Origin: Candidatus Micrarchaeota archaeon
GTDB taxonomy: Archaea > Micrarchaeota > Micrarchaeia > Anstonellales > Bilamarchaeaceae
Assembly (NCBI GenBank): GCA_038046805.1
Contig: JBBSVO010000006.1
Span: 215,166 to 279,165 of the forward strand
Direction of reading: 5' to 3'
Length of the DNA: 64,000 nucleotides
Translations under genes and position numbers: made by a program
Notes under the pieces: generated by a model
Told to the model about the DNA's origin: nothing
What the model saw: the letters and a program-made list of their open reading frames with translations, nothing else
The model's database searches: none
Shown here: positions 17,845-63,907 of the stretch, one piece after another
Position numbering within the stretch: position 1 is the stretch's first letter
Layout: every line of letters starts with the position of its first letter

Positions 17845-18022
17845 TGGGCCCGTTGTGATTTGAACACAAGACCTTTCGATTTCTATTGCATTTGTGCGAT
17901 ATCAGTCGAACGCTCCAACCGGATTGCTCGTCCCTTCGGACTTTTTCTGCCTCAGGACTTTTCCGCTGGAGCGCTTTTGTCCTTTGGCTTCTGAAGTCAA
18001 AAGGGCCCTGAGCTACGGGCCC
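17845..18022 (-). tRNA. tRNA-Ile(GAU) with a D-loop intron (~17924-18007) and a 19-nt anticodon-loop intron (17881-17899)
   Basis: Reverse complement GGGCCCG-TA-GCTC-AG[84]TCCGGTTG-GAGC-G-TTCGA-CT-GAT-A[19]A-TCGAA-AGGTC-TTGTG-TTCAAAT-CACAA-CGGGCCC-A. Confidence 0.88.
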
Positions 18023-49924: not shown

Positions 49925-50005
49925 GCTAATATCTCATCTCCATGTATTTTAATTCTTACAGGTGTATAATCCACGTAATCTTTTATCGGTTTTTGGGTGT
50001 TTTCT

Positions 50006-52330
50006 ATGACTAAATCTAACTCTGGGGTTGAATTGTGGAAGCGTGCAAAGCAGATTATTCCGGGCGGCTCTCAATTGCTTTCAAAGCGTTCGGAAATGTT
50101 CCTTCCTGACCAGTGGCCTTCTTATTATTCTAAAGCAAAGGGGATTAACGTCTGGGATCTTGATGGAAACAAGTTTACGGACATGTGCATAATGGGCATC
50201 GGTGCGTGTATTCTTGGTTATGCTGATGATGATGTAAATCGCGCGGTAAAGGACAGGATTGACCGCGGCAACATGACAACGTTCAATTGCCCGGAAGAGG
50301 TTGAGCTTGCAGAAAAGCTGATTTCACTTAATCCCTGGGCAGGCGGAGTGCGCTATGCAAGAACTGGCGGGGAATCAATGTCAATGGCTGTTCGCATTTC
50401 GCGCGGGTATGCGAAAAAGGACAAAATCGCATTTTGTTACGATGATAAAACAGAGATTTTGACAAAAGACGGATTCAAAAAATTCGAGGATGTATGTGAA
50501 GAGGAATTAGTCGCAACACTTAATCCCCTTACAAATAAGCTGGAGTATCATAAAATAGACCGAAAAATAAAGCTTCAGTTTACAGGTAAAATGATACATT
50601 TTAAGGGCCAAAGAGTCGATATCTTAGTAACTCCTGACCATATGGTCTATCGAAAGTTTCGGTTAAAAAAGGGGCATCATTTTAAACTCATACGTGCTTC
50701 GAATGCTTTACAAAGAAAAGTAATGACTCAAATGACGAGTTTTTGTAATTGGGATGGAGAATCTAAAAACGAGAAATTCATTATTTCTGGGATTGAGAAT
50801 CAATCAAGACCGACAAAAGGATTAATGTCTTTTCCTATAAAGTATTTTGTTAGATTTATGGGTTGGTACTTATCTGAAGGTTGTTGTGTAAAACGAAAAA
50901 AACGTAAAACTTACGAAGTAGTTATAAGCCAGGATATAAAAAACAAAGAAAAAAGTGATGAGATATTTACAACAATCAGAAGTTTGGGATTTAAACCGTA
51001 TAGAAATGGACACCATATTTGTTTTAATTCCAAAGAACTCACACACTATTTGCAACAATTTGGGCATACTAAAGACAAATACATCCCAGCCTGGATAAAA
51101 AACCTGCCGCCTAGTTACTTGGCAATTTTTGTAGATGCTATCGTAAAAGGAGATGGCACATTTGAAAACGGCAGAATCAGAAAATTTTATTCTACTTCAA
51201 AGAAATTGATAGACGGGATGCAAGAAATTCTGTTAAAAATGGGTCATTCATCCACAGTTTCCGAAATTCATGGCAATGGTTTTTCAAAAGGTATGATATA
51301 CCACCTAAATATAGGGAGGGAGAAAATTTTGGGGTCTTGGCCAAAAGAAGAGCACTATGATGGCTTTGTATATTGTGTTACCGTTCCAAATCATATCATA
51401 TTGGTGCGAAGAAATGGAAGAATCGTGTGGTCTGGAAATTGCGGATATCACGGATGGTCTGACTGGTATCTTGCGACTAATCTAAAAGACCCTGGCGGAT
51501 TGAATGACCATCTTTTGAAAGGCCTTGAGCCTCTTGGAGTTCCGCAAAACCTCAGTGGTTCTGTACTGCCATTTCATTATAACAAAATAGAAGAACTCGA
51601 AGCATTAGTCTCCAAAAACAAGGATATCGGCGTAATCGTGGTTGAGGCAATAAGAAGCCAGAAGCCTGAGAACGACTTTTTGGGCAAGGTGCGAAAGATC
51701 GCGGATGAAATCGGGGCGGTCCTCGTATTTGATGAAATTACTTCTGCCTGGAGAATGACTATTGGTGGAGCGTATCCAATGTTTGGGGTAACGCCGGATG
51801 TCGTTGTATTCGGAAAGGCAATGAGCAATGGTTATCCGATGGCAGCGGTTGTTGGAAAGGCCGAAGTGATGGACGTTGCCCAACAGAGTTTTATCAGTAG
51901 CACTTACTGGTCTGAGGGTGTTGGGCCAACTGCGGCTCTTGCAACAATAAAAAAACTCGAGGATAAGGCTGTGCCAAAACATATTGTTGAAATTGGAAAC
52001 TACGCAGGTCATACCTGGGAGCGCCTTGGAAAAGAATCGGGCCTGAAGATTCATGTTGATTTCGGGTTCCCTCCGATAATGCATTTTGATTTTGAATATG
52101 AAAACAAACTCGCAATAATGACTTTGTTCACGCAGGAAATGTTGGCCAGAGGATATTTGGCCACGGGCGGCTTCTATGTTTCTTATTCCCATCAGAAATC
52201 AGACGTGGATAAATATGGGGAGGCCTGCGCCGAGGTATTCAAGCTGATAAAAAAAGCAGTTGATGATGGGAGTGTTGAAAAGCAGTTAAAAGGTCCGATT
52301 AAGCATTCTGGGTTCCAGAGATTGACTTAG
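50006..52330 (+). CDS. Class III aminotransferase (glutamate-1-semialdehyde aminomutase-like), intein-containing
   Basis: IPGGSQLLSKR, WDLDGN, GYHGW, FDEITS, FGKAMSNGYP (PLP lysine). Confidence 0.9.
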   Translation: MTKSNSGVELWKRAKQIIPGGSQLLSKRSEMFLPDQWPSYYSKAKGINVWDLDGNKFTDMCIMGIGACILGYADDDVNRAVKDRIDRGNMTTFNCPEEVELAEKLISLNPWAGGVRYARTGGESMSMAVRISRGYAKKDKIAFCYDDKTEILTKDGFKKFEDVCEEELVATLNPLTNKLEYHKIDRKIKLQFTGKMIHFKGQRVDILVTPDHMVYRKFRLKKGHHFKLIRASNALQRKVMTQMTSFCNWDGESKNEKFIISGIENQSRPTKGLMSFPIKYFVRFMGWYLSEGCCVKRKKRKTYEVVISQDIKNKEKSDEIFTTIRSLGFKPYRNGHHICFNSKELTHYLQQFGHTKDKYIPAWIKNLPPSYLAIFVDAIVKGDGTFENGRIRKFYSTSKKLIDGMQEILLKMGHSSTVSEIHGNGFSKGMIYHLNIGREKILGSWPKEEHYDGFVYCVTVPNHIILVRRNGRIVWSGNCGYHGWSDWYLATNLKDPGGLNDHLLKGLEPLGVPQNLSGSVLPFHYNKIEELEALVSKNKDIGVIVVEAIRSQKPENDFLGKVRKIADEIGAVLVFDEITSAWRMTIGGAYPMFGVTPDVVVFGKAMSNGYPMAAVVGKAEVMDVAQQSFISSTYWSEGVGPTAALATIKKLEDKAVPKHIVEIGNYAGHTWERLGKESGLKIHVDFGFPPIMHFDFEYENKLAIMTLFTQEMLARGYLATGGFYVSYSHQKSDVDKYGEACAEVFKLIKKAVDDGSVEKQLKGPIKHSGFQRLT
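50435..51439 (+). mobile_element. Intein (335 aa) with LAGLIDADG homing endonuclease
   Basis: Starts CYDDKTEILTKDG; block B VTPDH; EN blocks FMGWYLSEG and FVDAIVKGDG; ends VYCVTVPNH...VWSGN followed by Cys+1. Confidence 0.95.
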
Positions 52331-52372
52331 GGGGCTCAGGCAAATATTTGAGGAATGTTACCGAGTTCTTGA

Positions 52373-56497: not shown

Positions 56498-56785
56498 TTA
56501 ATTCCTCCGAACCATTATTGTTCCGCACTTATTGCATTTATGTTTAGGTTCGCCACCCATGGAAACTTCCAAACCTATGAATAATGTCGAACCACATTTT
56601 GGACATTTATATTCTGGCTGGAGTCGGTATGCTTCGGGTTTTACATTTCTTGGTCCTACTGTAATTTCGAAATACCGTACCATGTTTTTTATCGCTTCTT
56701 GCTTTGTTTTAAAATTGTTAACTATTTTGTAGACTTCTAATATTTTGGATTCTTCTTCGGATAATTCAAGCAACATTTTAGCCAT
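56498..56785 (-). CDS. DUF2683-like ribbon-helix-helix protein with C-terminal Zn ribbon
   Basis: L.LSEE..+IL.VYK......K.EAI; CPKC...CNKC. Confidence 0.55.
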   Translation of the reverse strand: MAKMLLELSEEESKILEVYKIVNNFKTKQEAIKNMVRYFEITVGPRNVKPEAYRLQPEYKCPKCGSTLFIGLEVSMGGEPKHKCNKCGTIMVRRN

Positions 56786-56960
56786 ATAATCACAAGTTAT
56801 ATTAAGTAATACTAGATTATAAAGCTATCGGGCTCTCCGTCCATTAAATATCTTAGAAAAGTTGGCGTCCTCAAATTAGACCTGAGGACTTCCAGAGTGC
56901 ACTCAGGTTAATTTCGACTTATGCTCACGTCGAAGAAAAGTAGGGATTCTAAGAAAAGTG

Positions 56961-56994
56961 AGATGCAGGGGAAGTAACCCGAGACTAGGTCTCC
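56961..56994 (-). repeat. tRNA 3'-end-like direct repeat copy C (34 bp)
   Basis: agatgcaggggaagtaacccgagactaggtctcc; 33/34 identical to 63874-63907. Confidence 0.85.
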
Positions 56995-57245
56995 GTTCAT
57001 CGACAAGAGCGGAAGCTCTTGGAGAGATTTGAACGGAACGCCGTTCAAACAGATCACCCATTTTTTACCTCGTTACCAAGTATTATTATCGAGGTCAAAA
57101 TATATAAAGGCTGCTCTAGCTGAAATGGCAGAATTCCTAAGAATTAGGGTGGATTGATAGGGAAAAACAATGAAACGATCTAGGGGCCAACAGCACGTAT
57201 AGCCCTACCCACTCGCCCCATTATTGAGAGTACCAAGTCACAACA

Positions 57246-57926
57246 TTACTTTTTGGTTTTGTTATTCTCCTTTTTGTGACATAATTCAAACAAAGTCTGA
57301 TAAGCCTTCATTAAATCTTTTTCTTCTACGAATACTAGCATCTCTGGAACACAGCTCATTATCTCGTAAATATTAACACTATTTAGCATAAGTTCGGTTG
57401 ATATTACCAACACAATGCCAGGCGTATTTACTGCTTCAGGATGCAGATGTATATTTACCTCTGCAAGATCTTCTTGTATTTTTATTATAATTCTTTTAGG
57501 TAAGAGATCCAGCACCTTCTTGAGATTTTTTTCATCCACAAGCACTTTGATTGATTCCTCTCCTTCCACGATACGTAGCGTTTCACCACGTTCGAAATTT
57601 ATAAGGGAAAACAACCGTGGCAATGTTTCCTGTGCTTCTTTTCCTGTTTCCAATGCAATACTGACAATGTGACTTCGGGTAGAGATAGTAGACTGGCTGA
57701 CAATCTTTCCAGCGTTTTCGAATTTATTTTTAAAAGTACTGTCTTTGGGATAGCGGCGTATCGCACTTATTACAGCATCTTCAGTTGGTTCCAAACCTTT
57801 TTCTTCCAGTTGTTTTGCAACAAATCTGCTAAGTGCCCGAATGTTTATCAGGTCGCGTTGCAGGCAGAGCTGGATACTTGGATCTTTCTCTATTATTTTC
57901 CATGTTTCAAACGGTATTTCTGTCAT
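57246..57926 (-). CDS. ACT-domain-containing putative regulator
   Basis: I...L...LIN..AL.R....AVI.AIRRY N-terminal domain; TPGI.........N.VNI.EI.SC..E ACT-like C-terminus; divergent from leu operon. Confidence 0.7.
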   Translation of the reverse strand: MTEIPFETWKIIEKDPSIQLCLQRDLINIRALSRFVAKQLEEKGLEPTEDAVISAIRRYPKDSTFKNKFENAGKIVSQSTISTRSHIVSIALETGKEAQETLPRLFSLINFERGETLRIVEGEESIKVLVDEKNLKKVLDLLPKRIIIKIQEDLAEVNIHLHPEAVNTPGIVLVISTELMLNSVNIYEIMSCVPEMLVFVEEKDLMKAYQTLFELCHKKENNKTKK

Positions 57927-58038
57927 AATTAGCATATTTGTGTTAAAACAATTAATAAATGTATCTTTTGTGCCATAAAATATTAATAGGATGGCTGTTA
58001 CATGAATCAACATCAAAACACAAAATGAGGTGGGAAAT

Positions 58039-58143
58039 ATGAGAATAAGTGTAAGAGAAGGAAATAATGAAAAAATAGGCATTCGGGATAAAGCAGCTAA
58101 ATTGATCTTGAATGAATTGGCCTTGGACCAGGCCTATTGCTAA
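58039..58143 (+). CDS. Putative leader peptide of the leu operon (34 aa)
   Basis: GAGGTG RBS; MRISVREGNNEKIGIRDKAAKLILNELALDQAYC; four TTG Leu codons in 8 codons; T7 tract right after the stop. Confidence 0.5.
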   Translation: MRISVREGNNEKIGIRDKAAKLILNELALDQAYC

Positions 58144-58225
58144 TTTTTTTAATAATAACAAAGTTGCGATAGGCGGAATGAAACATTATGATCAATAGAA
58201 TTGATGGATAAGGGGTGAAAAAACA

Positions 58226-59098
58226 ATGACAAAAGTAAACATGAGTGGGGAAATAGTTGATGAGGCAGATGCTAAAATATCAGTATTCGACCATGGATTA
58301 CTCTATGGCGACGGAATATTCGAAGGAATACGGATATACAATCGGTGCATTTTCAAATACAGCGAGCATATCGATAGGCTCTATGATTCTGCCCGCGCAA
58401 TTTCACTTACGATTCCTATCAGCAAACAAACCTTCCAGGATGAAATAATCAAAACATGTATTGAAAATAAAATAGATAGCGGCTATCTTCGTGTCATAGT
58501 AACTCGTGGGATAGGTGGACTTGGGGTAAGTTCAATTACATGCAAGAATCCACAGTATATTATAATCTCTAAGGAAGTAGATCCGCTTCATGGAGCCAAA
58601 TCAGTTGAAGATGGCGTGGATGTGATAACCACATCAATACGACGAGCAAGTAGTACAGCAATTCCTGTTCAAGCTAAAACCTTAAATTACCTCAATCTAG
58701 TGATGGCCGTTGCCCAAGCGCAGGCTTTAGGAAAACAAGACGCATTAATGTTCAATGAACAGGGATATCTGACCGAGGGAGTAGGAGATAATGTTTTCAT
58801 AATAAAAAACAGAGTAATATGTACCCCACCCCCCAACTCAGGTTGCCTTGCTGGTATTACCAGAAATTCAGTTATTGAAATCGCCAGTAAAATGGGTTAT
58901 AGTGTAGTAGAGATAAATATGACTCTTTACGATATTTACGTTGCAGACGAAATATTCCTTACCGGTACACTTGCAGAGATCGTTCCGGTCAAGAGCGTAG
59001 ATGGCGAAAAAATAGGCAACGGGCAGGTAGGAGATCTAACCAAAAAAATTGCCAGCGAATTTAGAAAGTACATTGTAAACAACGGGGTGAAATACTGA
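58226..59098 (+). CDS. ilvE: Branched-chain amino acid aminotransferase
   Basis: DHGLLYGDGIFEGIR, K.LNY, EG.G.N.F, L.GITR, ADEIFLTGT.AEI.PV. Confidence 0.95.
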   Translation: MTKVNMSGEIVDEADAKISVFDHGLLYGDGIFEGIRIYNRCIFKYSEHIDRLYDSARAISLTIPISKQTFQDEIIKTCIENKIDSGYLRVIVTRGIGGLGVSSITCKNPQYIIISKEVDPLHGAKSVEDGVDVITTSIRRASSTAIPVQAKTLNYLNLVMAVAQAQALGKQDALMFNEQGYLTEGVGDNVFIIKNRVICTPPPNSGCLAGITRNSVIEIASKMGYSVVEINMTLYDIYVADEIFLTGTLAEIVPVKSVDGEKIGNGQVGDLTKKIASEFRKYIVNNGVKY

Positions 59099-60651
59099 TG
59101 GGTACTTTTGTTAGTTATTATAATTTTGATGCAGAAACGCGGCAATCCATGGATCTTCCTAAAAAAGTCAGTGTTTTTGACACCACGCTAAGGGATGGGG
59201 AGCAGACTCCAGGAGTGGTTTTTACAGGAAAGGAAAAATGCCACATTGCAACTGAACTAAGCAAGCTTGGTGTAGATATTATTGAGGCGGGGTTTCCGGC
59301 AAATTCGGAGGAGGAGCAAAAAAATATCCAAGAGATTACAGGGCTTGGCCTAAAGAGCAAAATATGCACTCTTGCAAGGGCAGTTGAAAGTGATATTGAG
59401 GGTTGTATTAAATGCAATCCCAATATGGTACATACTTTCATATCTACGTCGGATATTCATATAAAATATCAGATGAATACAACTAGAGAAGCAGTAATGA
59501 AACGCGCAATAGACTCTGTGGATAAAATCAAGAATCAGGGTTTTGAATGTATGTTCTCTCCAATGGATGCAACCAGGACTGATTTTGATTTTCTGGTAAA
59601 AGTATGTAAAGAAGTTGAAAATGCCGGTGCTGACATAATAAATATCCCGGATACTGTCGGCGTCATGAATCCACCTGCAATGCGCTCGTTGTTTAAGAGG
59701 CTGAAGAATCACTTAAAAATACCACTCGATGTACACTGCCATAATGATTTCGGCCTTGCAGTGCCAAATACCCTTGCTGCTGTAGAATCTGGGGCCTCGG
59801 AAGTTCAGGTTACAGTTAACGGGCTTGGGGAACGCGCAGGCAATGCAAATCTTGCTCAGGTAGTAATGAGTCTTAATATTTTATACGGGGTTAACACAAA
59901 TATCAAAACCCAGGGACTTACCGAGATTTCAAAATTAGTTGAAAGGCTGTCTATGATCCATAATCCTGCAAACACCCCTCTTGTTGGTAAAAATGCATTC
60001 AGTCACGAATCAGGAATACACGCCGCAGCCATACTCAAGAGAGCAGAAACTTTCGAACCTATTTCTGCAGAGATGGTGGGTCAACGAAGTAGAGTGGTTA
60101 TTGGAAAAAACACAGGACGGCATGCAGTTTCAGATGCGCTTAAATCGATAGGATACAAATTCAATGAGGATCAGATAAACACAGTTACACAAAAAATCAA
60201 GGAACTTGCAATAAAACAGAAAAAAATATCTGAAGATGACATAATTGCGATTGCAGACGAGGTACTGTGCAATGAACCAAACACGGAAAAGGCAATTGTG
60301 CTTGAAGATTTTTCAGTATTTACGAGCAACAAGATGGATTCTATGGCGAGCGTTGTGCTTTCTGTGTGCGGCGAAAGAAAAAAAGGCAATGCTATTGGAA
60401 TAGGTGCCGTTGATGCGTCTTATAAGGCAATAAGTTCAGCGCTGGGGATACCGTTCAAGCTAAGCGAATATAACCTGAAAGCGATTACTGGCGGAACTGA
60501 TGCACTGGCCAATGTGCTAATCCGGATTGAAGGTAACAAAAAAGAAATTCAAGCCGAATCTGTCCACGAGGATATTGCATTAGCCTCAGTCAATGCACTT
60601 ATTAAAGGAATGAATAAAATGAAAATAAATGAACTGGGGCAAGCGAAATGA
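59098..60651 (+). CDS. leuA: 2-isopropylmalate synthase (LeuA/CimA family)
   Basis: DTTLRDGEQTPG, HCHNDFGLA, NGLGERAGN, HESGIH; C-terminal regulatory domain; operon context. Confidence 0.85.
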   Translation: MGTFVSYYNFDAETRQSMDLPKKVSVFDTTLRDGEQTPGVVFTGKEKCHIATELSKLGVDIIEAGFPANSEEEQKNIQEITGLGLKSKICTLARAVESDIEGCIKCNPNMVHTFISTSDIHIKYQMNTTREAVMKRAIDSVDKIKNQGFECMFSPMDATRTDFDFLVKVCKEVENAGADIINIPDTVGVMNPPAMRSLFKRLKNHLKIPLDVHCHNDFGLAVPNTLAAVESGASEVQVTVNGLGERAGNANLAQVVMSLNILYGVNTNIKTQGLTEISKLVERLSMIHNPANTPLVGKNAFSHESGIHAAAILKRAETFEPISAEMVGQRSRVVIGKNTGRHAVSDALKSIGYKFNEDQINTVTQKIKELAIKQKKISEDDIIAIADEVLCNEPNTEKAIVLEDFSVFTSNKMDSMASVVLSVCGERKKGNAIGIGAVDASYKAISSALGIPFKLSEYNLKAITGGTDALANVLIRIEGNKKEIQAESVHEDIALASVNALIKGMNKMKINELGQAK

Positions 60652-61739
60652 TCCGTATTGCAGTTCTGCCTGGAGATGGAATAGGACCTGAGATCACAGC
60701 TGAAGCAATAAAAATACTAGAGGCAGTAGCTGAAAAACATAACAGTAAATTCGAATTTGAGTATGCTGATTTTGGGGGAGCTGCGTATGATAATCACGGG
60801 CATCCGTTCCCAGAACAAACAATTCAAATTTGCGACAAAGCAGATACAATTTTGAAAGGTCCTGTTGGTGCACCAAAATATGACAATATCGCTGACCCTA
60901 GCTTAAGGCCTGAACGAGGTGGAGTGCTTGCACTTAGAAAAAGATATGATACTTTTGCGAATTTCAGACCAGTTTATCTTCCGCCATCTTTAATTTCATT
61001 TTCTCCCCTGAAAAAAGAAAACATCAAAAGTGGAATTGACATTCTCATGATAAGGGAGCTTGTAGGTGGGATATATTTTGGGGATAAAATGGAGGGTAAA
61101 AACGAATCTGGAAAATATGCCCAGGATGTGATGGAATACACTGAATTCCAGGTTGAAAGAATTGTCAGAATCGCATTTGAAGAGGCAAGGAAAAGAAAAG
61201 CCCTGCTTTACAATATTCATAAATCAAATGTTCTCCAGTGCAGTGTTTTCTGGAACAGAATAGTTAATGAAATACAAGAAAAAGAATATTCTGATGTGAA
61301 AATGGAACATATGCTTGTGGATAATGCTGCATACCAGCTTGTGGTTAACCCCTGTCAGTTCAAAGTTATGCTTATGGAGAATATGATGGGAGATATACTT
61401 ACAGACGAAGGAGGAGGAATAATCGGATCGCTTGGGCTCATGCCCTCAGGATGTATTGGACCAAAAAAAGCATATTTTGAACCTGCGCATGGTTCAGCAC
61501 CATCAATAGCTGGAAAAAATATTGCAAACCCGTATTCTATGATCGGAAGTGCTGCCATGATGCTGGAAAGATTTGGAATGGGAAAAGAAGCAAATGAGAT
61601 ATGGAACGCTCTGACAAAAGTAATGGAGAAAAATAGAACTTGGGATCTCATGACAAAAGAAAATCCAGATGGCGCAGTTCTCGTTACTACGAAAAAATTC
61701 GGCAATCTTGTAAAAGATAAAATTCTTTCGTGTGGTTAA
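60648..61739 (+). CDS. leuB: 3-isopropylmalate dehydrogenase
   Basis: [48 protein letters not shown]. Confidence 0.95.
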
Positions 61740-61740
61740 T

Positions 61741-63141
61741 ATGTCAGAAAATACTCTGCTAGATAAAATCTGGAAGTTGCACACTGTAAAAGAACTCCCT
61801 ACCGGGCAGACCCAGCTTTTTATTGGGCTTCATTTTCTTCACGAAGTTACGAGTCCTCAGGCATTTGATATGCTACGGGAAAATAACTGGAAGGTGGCAT
61901 TTCCAGAACAGAATTTTGCAACTGTAGACCACATAGTCCCTACAGATAACCAAAATCGCCCTTTCAAAGACATTCTTGCCGAAAAAATGATGGCTGCACT
62001 GGAGAACAATGTTCGGGAATTTGGCATTCAGATGTTTTCAATTGGGGACAAAAACCAGGGTATTGTACATGTTATCGGCCCTGAAACCGGACTTACCCAA
62101 CCAGGCATGACTATTGCCTGCGGAGATAGTCACACTAGTACGCATGGTGCGTTCGGTTCTCTTGCATTCGGAATAGGCACTAGCCAGGTACGTGATGTGC
62201 TTGTTACACAATGTCTTGCAATGACAAAACCAAAAGTCAGAAAGATTAATATCAAAGGCACTCTTCAGAAGGGAGTTTATGCAAAAGACATAATACTCAC
62301 AATAATTAGAAAACTAGGGGTTAATGGGGGTATAGGATACGCATATGAATACGCTGGAGAAACAGTATCGAGAATGACAATGGAAGAACGGATGACAATA
62401 TGTAATATGAGTATCGAAGGCGGGGCGGTAATAGGCTATGTAAATCCTGATCAGAAAACTTTTGACTACATAAAAGAAAGAGAGTTCGCGCCAAAAAACT
62501 TTGAAAAAGCAGGCATATATTGGAAATCAGTCGCCTCAGATCAAAATGCACAATATGACGATGTTTTCCAACTTGATGTAACTAAACTTGAACCAGTAGT
62601 AACATGGGGGGTAAACCCAGGACAATCAATAGGTATAAGCGAGAAGATGCCGTTAATCAGGGGCATACCAGAAAACGAAAAAGAAAGTGCAAAACTTGCG
62701 TATAAGCACATGGGATGTAATCCGGAGCAAAAAATTCAGGGGACAAAGATAGATGTTGTATTCATTGGTTCTTGTACAAATGCACGGCTTTCTGATCTTA
62801 GAGAAGCAGCTGGGATTGTAAAAGGAAAAAAAATAGCATCTAATGTAAAAGGACTTGTTGTTCCTGGATCAGCAAGAGTTAAAAAAATGGCCGAGGCAGA
62901 TGGTCTTGATAAAATATTTACTGATGCTGGTTTTGAATGGCGAAACGCAGGATGCTCGCTTTGCCTTGGGATGAACAGTGATAAACTGACTGGCGGTGAA
63001 ATATGTGCATCATCATCCAATAGGAATTTCATAGGAAGGCAGGGGAGTCCAAAAGGAAGGACTATATTAATGAGTCCTGCCATGGTCGCTGCTGCAGCAA
63101 TAGCGGGGAAAATAATAGATGTACGAAAACTGATAGTGTGA
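61741..63141 (+). CDS. leuC: 3-isopropylmalate dehydratase large subunit
   Basis: [46 protein letters not shown]. Confidence 0.96.
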
Positions 63142-63146
63142 TCAAA

Positions 63147-63749
63147 ATGAATATAACAATAGAACGAATAGACGGAAGGGGCATCCCGCTTCGAGGCAAT
63201 GATATAGATACGGATAGGATTATTCCGGCAAGATACCTCAAGGAAATCACATTCACTAACATGGGAAGTTATCTTTTTTACGATGAACGATTCGATGAGA
63301 TGGGTCAGAAAAAAGAGCATATCCTCAACGTTTCAAGGTTTTTTGGTGGTTCTATTCTCTTAGTAAACAAAAATTTTGGCTGTGGTTCTTCGCGTGAGCA
63401 TGCAGCGCATTCCATCCAGAAATTTGGTATTCGTGCTATCATCGGGGAATCGTTCTCCAATATCTTTGCTTCCAATTGCCTATCTCTTGGCATCCCGGTT
63501 GTTCAGGTTTCATCAGAAGACTCAGAATTCCTGATGACGACAATTGAACGGCACCCACAAACAGTAATCGTTATCTCTATCTCAAAAGGAGAGATAACAT
63601 GTAGTAAAAAAATAATTAAATTCACAATGCCTGAACATGCAATAACGGCGTTACTGGCAGGAAACTGGAATTCGACCCAACTGCTTCTTTCTAACATGTT
63701 TGAAGTACGAACTATGGCTGTAGGGTTACCCTATATAAAGGGGTTTTAA
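63147..63749 (+). CDS. leuD: 3-isopropylmalate dehydratase small subunit
   Basis: DIDTDRIIPARYL, NFGCGSSREHA. Confidence 0.95.
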   Translation: MNITIERIDGRGIPLRGNDIDTDRIIPARYLKEITFTNMGSYLFYDERFDEMGQKKEHILNVSRFFGGSILLVNKNFGCGSSREHAAHSIQKFGIRAIIGESFSNIFASNCLSLGIPVVQVSSEDSEFLMTTIERHPQTVIVISISKGEITCSKKIIKFTMPEHAITALLAGNWNSTQLLLSNMFEVRTMAVGLPYIKGF

Positions 63750-63873
63750 TGAAACAAATAAAAAATGTGTGAAGTCAGGGATCAGATACCTGGCCACCGT
63801 TCTCCCAGACTGCATTTCACATGTCCTGAAAAAAACTCTACGACGTAAAATTAATCAAAAAACTAGCAAAAAA

Positions 63874-63907
63874 AGATGCAGGGGAAGTAACCCGAGACCA
63901 GGTCTCC
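63874..63907 (-). repeat. tRNA 3'-end-like direct repeat copy D (34 bp)
   Basis: agatgcaggggaagtaacccgagaccaggtctcc. Confidence 0.85.

Follow-up and report, generated by a model that had tools for sequence, protein, structure and literature searches.

The enterobacterial leuL leader carries its leucine codons in tandem, and the theory of selective charging holds that biosynthetic enzymes avoid the codon that is sensitive to starvation. PMC1183508 deals with the selective charging of tRNA isoacceptors under starvation and predicts UUG to be starvation-insensitive for E. coli. In the actinobacterial LEU element (PMC1262725), the leucine codons of the leader pair with the Shine-Dalgarno (SD) sequence of leuA and so close off an inner structure; the same paper reports that mutations in Streptomyces were at odds with classical attenuation. 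In archaea, aCPSF1 acts on U-rich tracts without a hairpin (PMC7515710 and PMC13675443), and a literature search conducted mostly outside subscription journals, which included PMC13158618, PMC7261190 and PMC11456600, brought up no archaeal leader peptide described as sensing an amino acid. The window considered here is the whole stretch of 64,000 nucleotides that was analysed, from a Candidatus Micrarchaeota archaeon, and it contains an upstream ORF (uORF) that is the first cistron before ilvE-leuA-leuB-leuC-leuD, that is, a short leader ORF with its own ribosome-binding site ahead of a cognate operon. We lean towards a leucine-sensing role of some kind for this uORF and, more tentatively, propose that it is a young one which frees the ilvE ribosome-binding site when ribosomes stall on its leucine codons, beneath a leucine-responsive regulator.

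The first-pass annotation of this DNA, made from the letters alone, had read the locus as a candidate leucine-sensing leader peptide and attenuator, on the grounds of a GAGGTG motif, a 34-codon ORF with four leucine codons, all of them TTG, and a T7 tract directly after the stop codon, and the sequence contains all of these (Table 1). The first 21 codons are free of leucine, which then appears at residues 22, 24, 27 and 29 (58102-58125) in the order L-I-L-N-E-L-A-L, a dispersed, helix-like spacing with no two leucines adjacent. Four in-frame stops within six codons close the frame cleanly, and the peptide, which public assemblies already annotate, forms a cluster of one. As leucine content the cluster hardly goes beyond chance: the total of 4 in 34 residues is no enrichment over the genome (8.9%), and of 7976 coding blocks, each 33 codons long, 3.6% contain at least four leucines within eight codons. 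In its choice of codon it does go beyond chance: four TTG within eight codons are found in none of the 7976 coding blocks and in 25 of 36,099 stop-free six-frame blocks, although any identical codon is used four times in eight in 2.7% of the coding blocks. Against this it counts that the locus was chosen for these very features out of a very large scan.

Table 1. Features of the regulator-uORF-leu locus, in coordinates of the window
Feature	Position	Strand	Basis and remarks
Direct repeat, 43 nt	left 56952-56994; right 63865-63907	+ (left)	88% over 43 nt
Regulator candidate	57246-57926	-	helical N-terminal domain resembling DUF7523, then an ACT pair; about 226 aa
Three TGTCA-type boxes, candidate operators	57921-26, 57939-44, 57969-76		promoter alignment
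TATA-type promoter of the uORF-leu transcript	57975-57990	+	5.8 bits; start inferred near 58010-58015
uORF SD, GAGGTG	58027-58032	+	sequence; inherited along with the regulator cassette
uORF, 34 codons	58039-58143	+	ATG 58039, TAA 58141-58143; annotated by gene callers in public assemblies
Anti-SD segment	58117-58129	+	Leu27-Ala28-Leu29-Asp30 codons; predicted pairing with 58206-58219
Hairpin, 43 nt	58132-58174	+	spans last codons, stop and U7; -16.9 kcal/mol; pair probabilities 0.98-1.0
T7 tract	58144-58150	+	may serve as an archaeal termination signal; lies within a possible internal TATA box, 58140-58153
ilvE SD, GGGGTG	58212-58217	+	sequence
ilvE-leuA-leuB-leuC-leuD operon	58226-63749	+	NCBIfam above cut-off, all five

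The codon itself is what sets the uORF against the genes that it precedes. TTG accounts for 3 of the 122 leucine codons of the operon, the lowest share among 879 overlapping gene runs (mean 15.9%; operon z -3.3; next-lowest run 5.3%), whereas it makes up 37 of 157 in the five genes upstream, the neighbours on the putative island, and 6 of 25 in the regulator gene. A leader built with TTG, the codon shunned by the enzymes, fits the selective charging of isoacceptors. Five of seven other leu gene sets use TTG much as their neighbouring genes do. The leu genes of G184 avoid it (1 of 116 leucine codons, against a background of 6.8%), and the unlinked leuA, leuC and leuD of G117 (L066, L179) prefer it (52 of 74, against 20%), so that the starvation-sensitive leucine codon would differ from genome to genome. 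Selection for leucine at the codon level in Micrarchaeota leu genes may be a by-product of possible worth in itself. On the minus strand, at about 5895-5495, lies the tRNA-Leu(CAA) that had been described, with three introns, as the decoder of TTG; three apparent insertions, in the D-loop, the anticodon loop and the T-loop, were read there by eye, and both ARAGORN and the Rfam search missed it. An interrupted tRNA at 17845-18022, considered as a leucine tRNA, was rejected as it is Ile(GAT).

Beyond the window the peptide has no relatives in what was searched. Neither Pfam nor NCBIfam holds a homologue, the 98 genomes of the family gave none (best E 0.066), and among 1.84 billion representatives it matched only itself and P0006, a frameshifted near-copy that agrees with it at 27 of the first 28 residues before running on in another frame. 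Because of this change of frame, and because ilvE lies in pieces on the same contigs (at most 6962 bp), P0006 was set aside as a homologue and taken for a probable assembly error. The possibility that the peptide is a fragment of a longer known protein, raised at the outset against the whole proposal, found nothing to support it in Pfam, among those representatives or in the family genomes. The intergenic DNA around the uORF matched 40 relatives only by chance, over 16-55 nt, and locus searches anchored on ilvE retrieved, from genomes and metagenomes, one relative, the same contig twice. The uORF is thus a singleton.

The first-pass annotation had also suggested looking for conserved leucine-rich uORFs before homologous operons. 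The DNA before the first leu/ilv gene was read by eye at nine loci (G184, G094, G361, G078, G117, G057, G110, G060 and G179), leaving aside G127, whose leuC is broken, and the leader of G202, whose contig begins inside ilvB; no homologous leader was found at these loci, and the lone candidate, in G184, is unrelated. This is a 27-codon ORF (L062:7069-7152), probably leaderless and about 124 nt 5' of leuA, with CTC, CTC, TTG and TTG among its last eleven codons and a Leu-Leu end (TTG TTG); the contig of the congener G480 begins just beyond the corresponding position. Next to the TATA box of leuC in G078 there is a leucine-rich frame of 14 codons that has arisen by chance. The G127 locus (L070) retains remnants of leuC, leuD and leuA with many stops, a leu operon in decay.

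Transcription of the uORF would start from the TATA-type promoter upstream, which, under a matrix derived from the upstream regions of 392 divergent genes or gene pairs, gives the best plus-strand score within 57930-58226 and keeps the same position in most homologous promoters, being weak in G179. A search for the promoter pattern in viral contigs gave one match, attributed to chance. One RNA-library contig spans 58032-58297 unchanged, through U7, at a depth of 2.8 and with DNA carry-over possible; it fits co-transcription of the uORF and ilvE, although a contig does not demonstrate a single transcript. Reads aligned to the locus reveal no variant in the uORF, which only X12 covers whole, and sequences of the organism are present in groundwater runs. 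A rival idea is that the uORF encodes a small protein in itself, a short amphipathic helix, followed by a leaky terminator at T7 and an ilvE promoter over the T tract. Gene finders call the ORF behind its strong SD and the sister slots discussed below contain ORFs of 74 aa, but the peptide has neither homologue nor family, the internal TATA, at 4.7 bits, scores less than the conserved upstream promoter, and the RNA-library contig crosses the junction, all of which leaves this explanation very improbable.

The attenuator had been drawn with three alternative partners for one segment at the end of the uORF. Two of them are present and complementary as described, AATAGGC at 58074-80 to 58132-38 and GGCCT at 58119-23 to 58130-34. 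The third, GCGATAGGC, exists as well, but at 58166-58174 and not at 58167-75. Contrary to what had been supposed, it does not leave the T tract in a loop: the hairpin that it forms continues, and the minimum-energy fold pairs six of the seven U's, with a probability of being unpaired of 0.15-0.2 for U7 in the folds. The region of this hairpin (58128-58178) has a z of -4.4, with none of 200 shuffles as stable, and hairpins with z at or below -4 stand at 37 of 918 gene ends of the genome (4%); the GGCCT:AGGCC hairpin, with a z of -0.85, is within chance. A match to 58168-58191 elsewhere in the genome was discarded, lying inside a coding gene.

Folding under the constraint of a bound ribosome leaves U7 paired if no ribosome is on the leader or one stands at Leu22-27, exposed if one stands at Leu29, and covered if one stands at the stop codon. 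The 43-nt hairpin forms with the ribosome at Leu22-27 and not at Leu29 or the stop, and the GGCCT:AGGCC stem forms only with a free leader or with the ribosome behind the stem, which are the wrong states for attenuation. For intrinsic termination, then, these states follow the wrong logic. No state-specific pair of terminator and antiterminator emerged from the constrained folds; the search for bacterial-type terminators returned zero terminator-like sites and no stem adjoining the U tract, U7 sitting within the hairpin and no U tract lying 3' of it; and an Rfam scan of 56500-58400, up to an E of 10, gave two chance matches and no leader family. The logic of a transcription attenuator is therefore unsupported, as there is no terminator stem, U7 is paired both in the free state and in the states stalled at leucine codons, and the upstream hairpin is mistimed. 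A classical leader-peptide attenuator of the leuL type was rejected for want of a terminator hairpin, an antiterminator switch and a match to a curated family.

Even though U7 is no bacterial terminator, it might still be the point of control if a ribosome stalled at Leu22-27 let the hairpin hide U7 from aCPSF1/FttA and a ribosome at the stop codon melted the hairpin, so that termination follows. A T7 tract within 10 nt of the stop codon is rare (6 of 919 genes of the genome), and the strong hairpin forms in precisely those stalled states and not at Leu29 or the stop; however, its 3' arm is made only after the polymerase has passed U7, and U7 is paired or covered by a ribosome in nearly all modelled states, with the stall at Leu29 exposing it. 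The absence of a stem-plus-U terminator counts against it; in its favour, aCPSF1 works at U-rich tracts without a hairpin (PMC7515710 and PMC13675443) and the S. aureus ilvD leader joins a repressor to a leucine leader whose antiterminator buries the poly-U (PMC5794164). We consider this version unlikely, given also that the search of this genome for aCPSF1 yielded metallo-beta-lactamase matches only and, as a weaker point, that the RNA-library contig continues through U7.

The leucine codons have another predicted partner. The anti-SD segment pairs with the ilvE SD region with probabilities of 0.6-0.87 at 25 C, enclosing the 43-nt hairpin, and 58112-58225 as a whole folds better than its shuffles (z -2.96). 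With a ribosome at Leu24-29 the ilvE site takes 1.5 kcal/mol less to open (25 C), a relief that 5 of 120 shuffled leaders match. The occlusion is weak: of 149 SD genes, 98.7% have an opening energy above the 5.0 kcal/mol of ilvE, and among 120 shuffled leaders 43 occlude as strongly. A ribosome at the uORF stop relieves the ilvE SD as much as one at the leucine codons, and starved and fed cells would be separable by ribosome dwell time alone. Nor is TTG needed for the pairing, in which the native sequence ranks 70th among 147 synonymous variants. Of the original proposal, then, leucine sensing stands as plausible, through the avoidance of TTG in the operon and the capacity of the leucine codons to pair with the ilvE SD, and the logic of the transcription attenuator finds no support.

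According to the translational mechanism that we propose, the divergent ACT regulator would exert the first control of the operon and the translated uORF the second, as a leucine gauge read by the ribosome. When leucine is short, the tRNA-Leu reading UUG would be the first to be found uncharged, and ribosomes would dwell at Leu24-29. There they would cover the anti-SD segment, which would otherwise be paired to the ilvE SD across the hairpin, whose folding would shorten the distance between the two. The ilvE SD being freed, ilvE would be translated; were it left untranslated, archaeal factor-dependent termination would also cut off leuA-D. The uORF itself would be recent, having most likely originated from the variable first ORF that is driven by the same promoter in sister genomes.

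The divergent regulator and the conserved boxes next to it were absent from the first-pass annotation. The start codon of the regulator was set by alignment with its homologues, and its matches in Pfam and NCBIfam are confined to ACT_7 (Pfam, 3.8e-08), DUF7523 (E 0.019) and aspartate kinase. Its structural model has a pLDDT of 90.6, and in a fold search residues 75-221 match the ACT domains of aspartate kinases with a Z of 14.3; a sequence search against solved structures gave spurious matches only. The protein is a putative DNA-binding regulator. The first and third TGTCA-type boxes are in register in all 16 aligned promoters and the middle one is looser; the first overlaps the start codon of the regulator, and is partly explained by coding, and the third lies just 5' of the forward TATA box. 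At 15 homologous loci (45-72% identity) the divergent promoter is in register with that of the window. In three of them (G060, G110 and G179) the regulator faces leuA directly, across a short untranslated stretch with no leader, which we counted in favour of leucine sensing; in the other 12 it faces unrelated ORFs. Homologues at about 52% are also present in Thermoplasmatales, and distant paralogues at L088 and L089 lie opposite a conserved ORF some 70 aa long, followed in L088 by a gene which resembles a sodium-dependent amino-acid transporter.

The nearest relatives of the regulator, in a clade with 100/99 support, are those of G004, G024, G214, G231 and G429. All five face unrelated ORFans of 74-251 aa through a homologous 5' UTR, at loci without leu genes, and GAGGTG precedes the ORF in this slot in G214, G429, G231 and G024. 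The promoter, UTR and ribosome-binding site of the uORF are features inherited with the slot and, by themselves, no evidence for a leader. That homologous leaders might lack leucine enrichment had been named as an outcome against the proposal, and it has come about by half: the slot ORFs are not leucine-rich leaders, but their loci have no leu genes. Leucine is in fact scarce in them (1/74, 1/74, 3/184 and 5/144 residues; 22/251 in G214), so that four of the five have at most 3.5%, against 5 of 1112 ORFs of at least 100 aa in the genome itself. Of the ORFs that lie opposite distant paralogues of the regulator, 2 in 13 are equally poor; the seven slot ORFs of the less closely related loci include two with mildly low leucine and five with a normal content. 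These counts exclude G230, with a partial regulator, a second partial copy in G429 and 3 of 16 distant-paralogue loci with no callable first ORF. Genes needed in starvation are expected to be low in the cognate amino acid (PMC4209129), and the leucine-poor sister ORFans make the promoter look induced by leucine starvation; from this we infer that the regulator senses leucine. The TTG cluster of the uORF runs counter to this norm of the slot. Across the cassette (57246-57990; loci L071-L083 and L157-L168), several slot ORFans are nearly free of leucine and have isoleucine in excess. As a by-product, the analysis gives a conserved regulator together with its operator and a regulon poor in leucine, perhaps equal in worth to the leader.

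The variability of the slot also gives rise to the view that the uORF is a neutral remnant, a short or truncated occupant of a fast-changing ORFan slot downstream of which the leu operon came to be placed, with the ACT regulator as sole leucine control and the TTG cluster and hairpin due to chance. We hold this to be possible, if somewhat doubtful. The five clade regulators with their unrelated ORFans, homologous 5' UTR and, in four cases, GAGGTG are what it would predict, and the three regulators that face leuA need no leader; indeed, with the conserved boxes next to it, the divergent ACT regulator offers a simpler control than a leader and could explain regulation alone. An ilvE orthologue at 64% is solitary and without a leader. 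Also in its favour are the frequency of such hairpins at gene ends, that of fourfold codons in coding blocks and the chance leucine-rich frame of G078. Left unexplained by a remnant is why the cluster should consist of TTG, the most avoided codon of the operon, in an otherwise leucine-poor slot; besides, the frame ends cleanly and no parent gene was found.

The direct repeat, a possible island boundary, brackets the regulator, the uORF and the leu operon, with more copies at 52372 and 53947, and searches of the same-genus genome G001 with the regulator, ilvE, leuA and leuC matched nothing. Together, the flanking repeat and the lack of these genes in G001, a genome only 84% complete, suggest an acquired block. 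In the genome of the window (86% complete) ilvD was not found, and ilvC appeared as weak dehydrogenase matches only. The core of the repeat, GATGCAGGGGAAG, occurs at 52372, 53947, 56952, 63865 and 63947, between blocks with an ATPase, AlbA, an HNH/zinc ribbon protein and the leu genes; its reverse complement resembles the 3' end of a tRNA, further copies exist elsewhere in the genome, and the repeats are possibly a tandem integration array. Nearby, 56955-57075 is a structured non-coding stretch with tandem hairpins (z -3.8), with related sequence in one RNA and one DNA run, and at 49997-52330 a class III aminotransferase is split by an insert containing LAGLIDADG, probably an intein.

With due reserve, we put forward that a DPANN archaeon may have turned the start region of an ORFan, de novo, into a leucine gauge that is read by the ribosome and built on the starvation-sensitive codon avoided by its leu enzymes, beneath a hitherto undescribed leucine-responsive double-ACT regulator whose targets in leucine-auxotrophic relatives are leucine-poor ORFans. 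If true, this would mean that in archaea, too, a leader can report amino-acid supply to the ribosome, with no need of a bacterial terminator, and that such gauges can arise quickly.

Several described systems share parts of this arrangement. Like TrpY of Methanothermobacter thermautotrophicus (as described in PMC6737238), the regulator is an archaeal one, divergent from a biosynthetic operon and with boxes in overlapping promoters; unlike it, it would serve another amino acid and combines matches to ACT_7/DUF7523 with ACT pairs of the aspartate kinase type. The S. aureus ilvD leader and CodY (PMC5794164) likewise combine a trans-acting sensor with a leucine leader whose leucine codons are partly interspersed, and with an alternative fold burying the poly-U; there, a conserved terminator lies 52 nt beyond the stop codon, and none does here. 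With enterobacterial leuL (PMC1183508) the uORF has in common a short leader with its own ribosome-binding site and four leucine codons, one synonym dominating, before leu genes; it differs in having no tandem leucine run, no hairpin-plus-U terminator, UUG in place of CUA and no Rfam match. Even though the uORF falls outside the classical attenuators, it may function like one. The LEU element (PMC1262725) has a conserved run of leucine codons and a pseudoknot in many genomes, whereas here there are four dispersed TTG and one hairpin in an archaeal singleton, with no homologous leader in the Micrarchaeia leuA loci examined; the likeness to it would lie in leucine codons that are predicted to pair, weakly, with a downstream SD around an inner hairpin, with no classical terminator.
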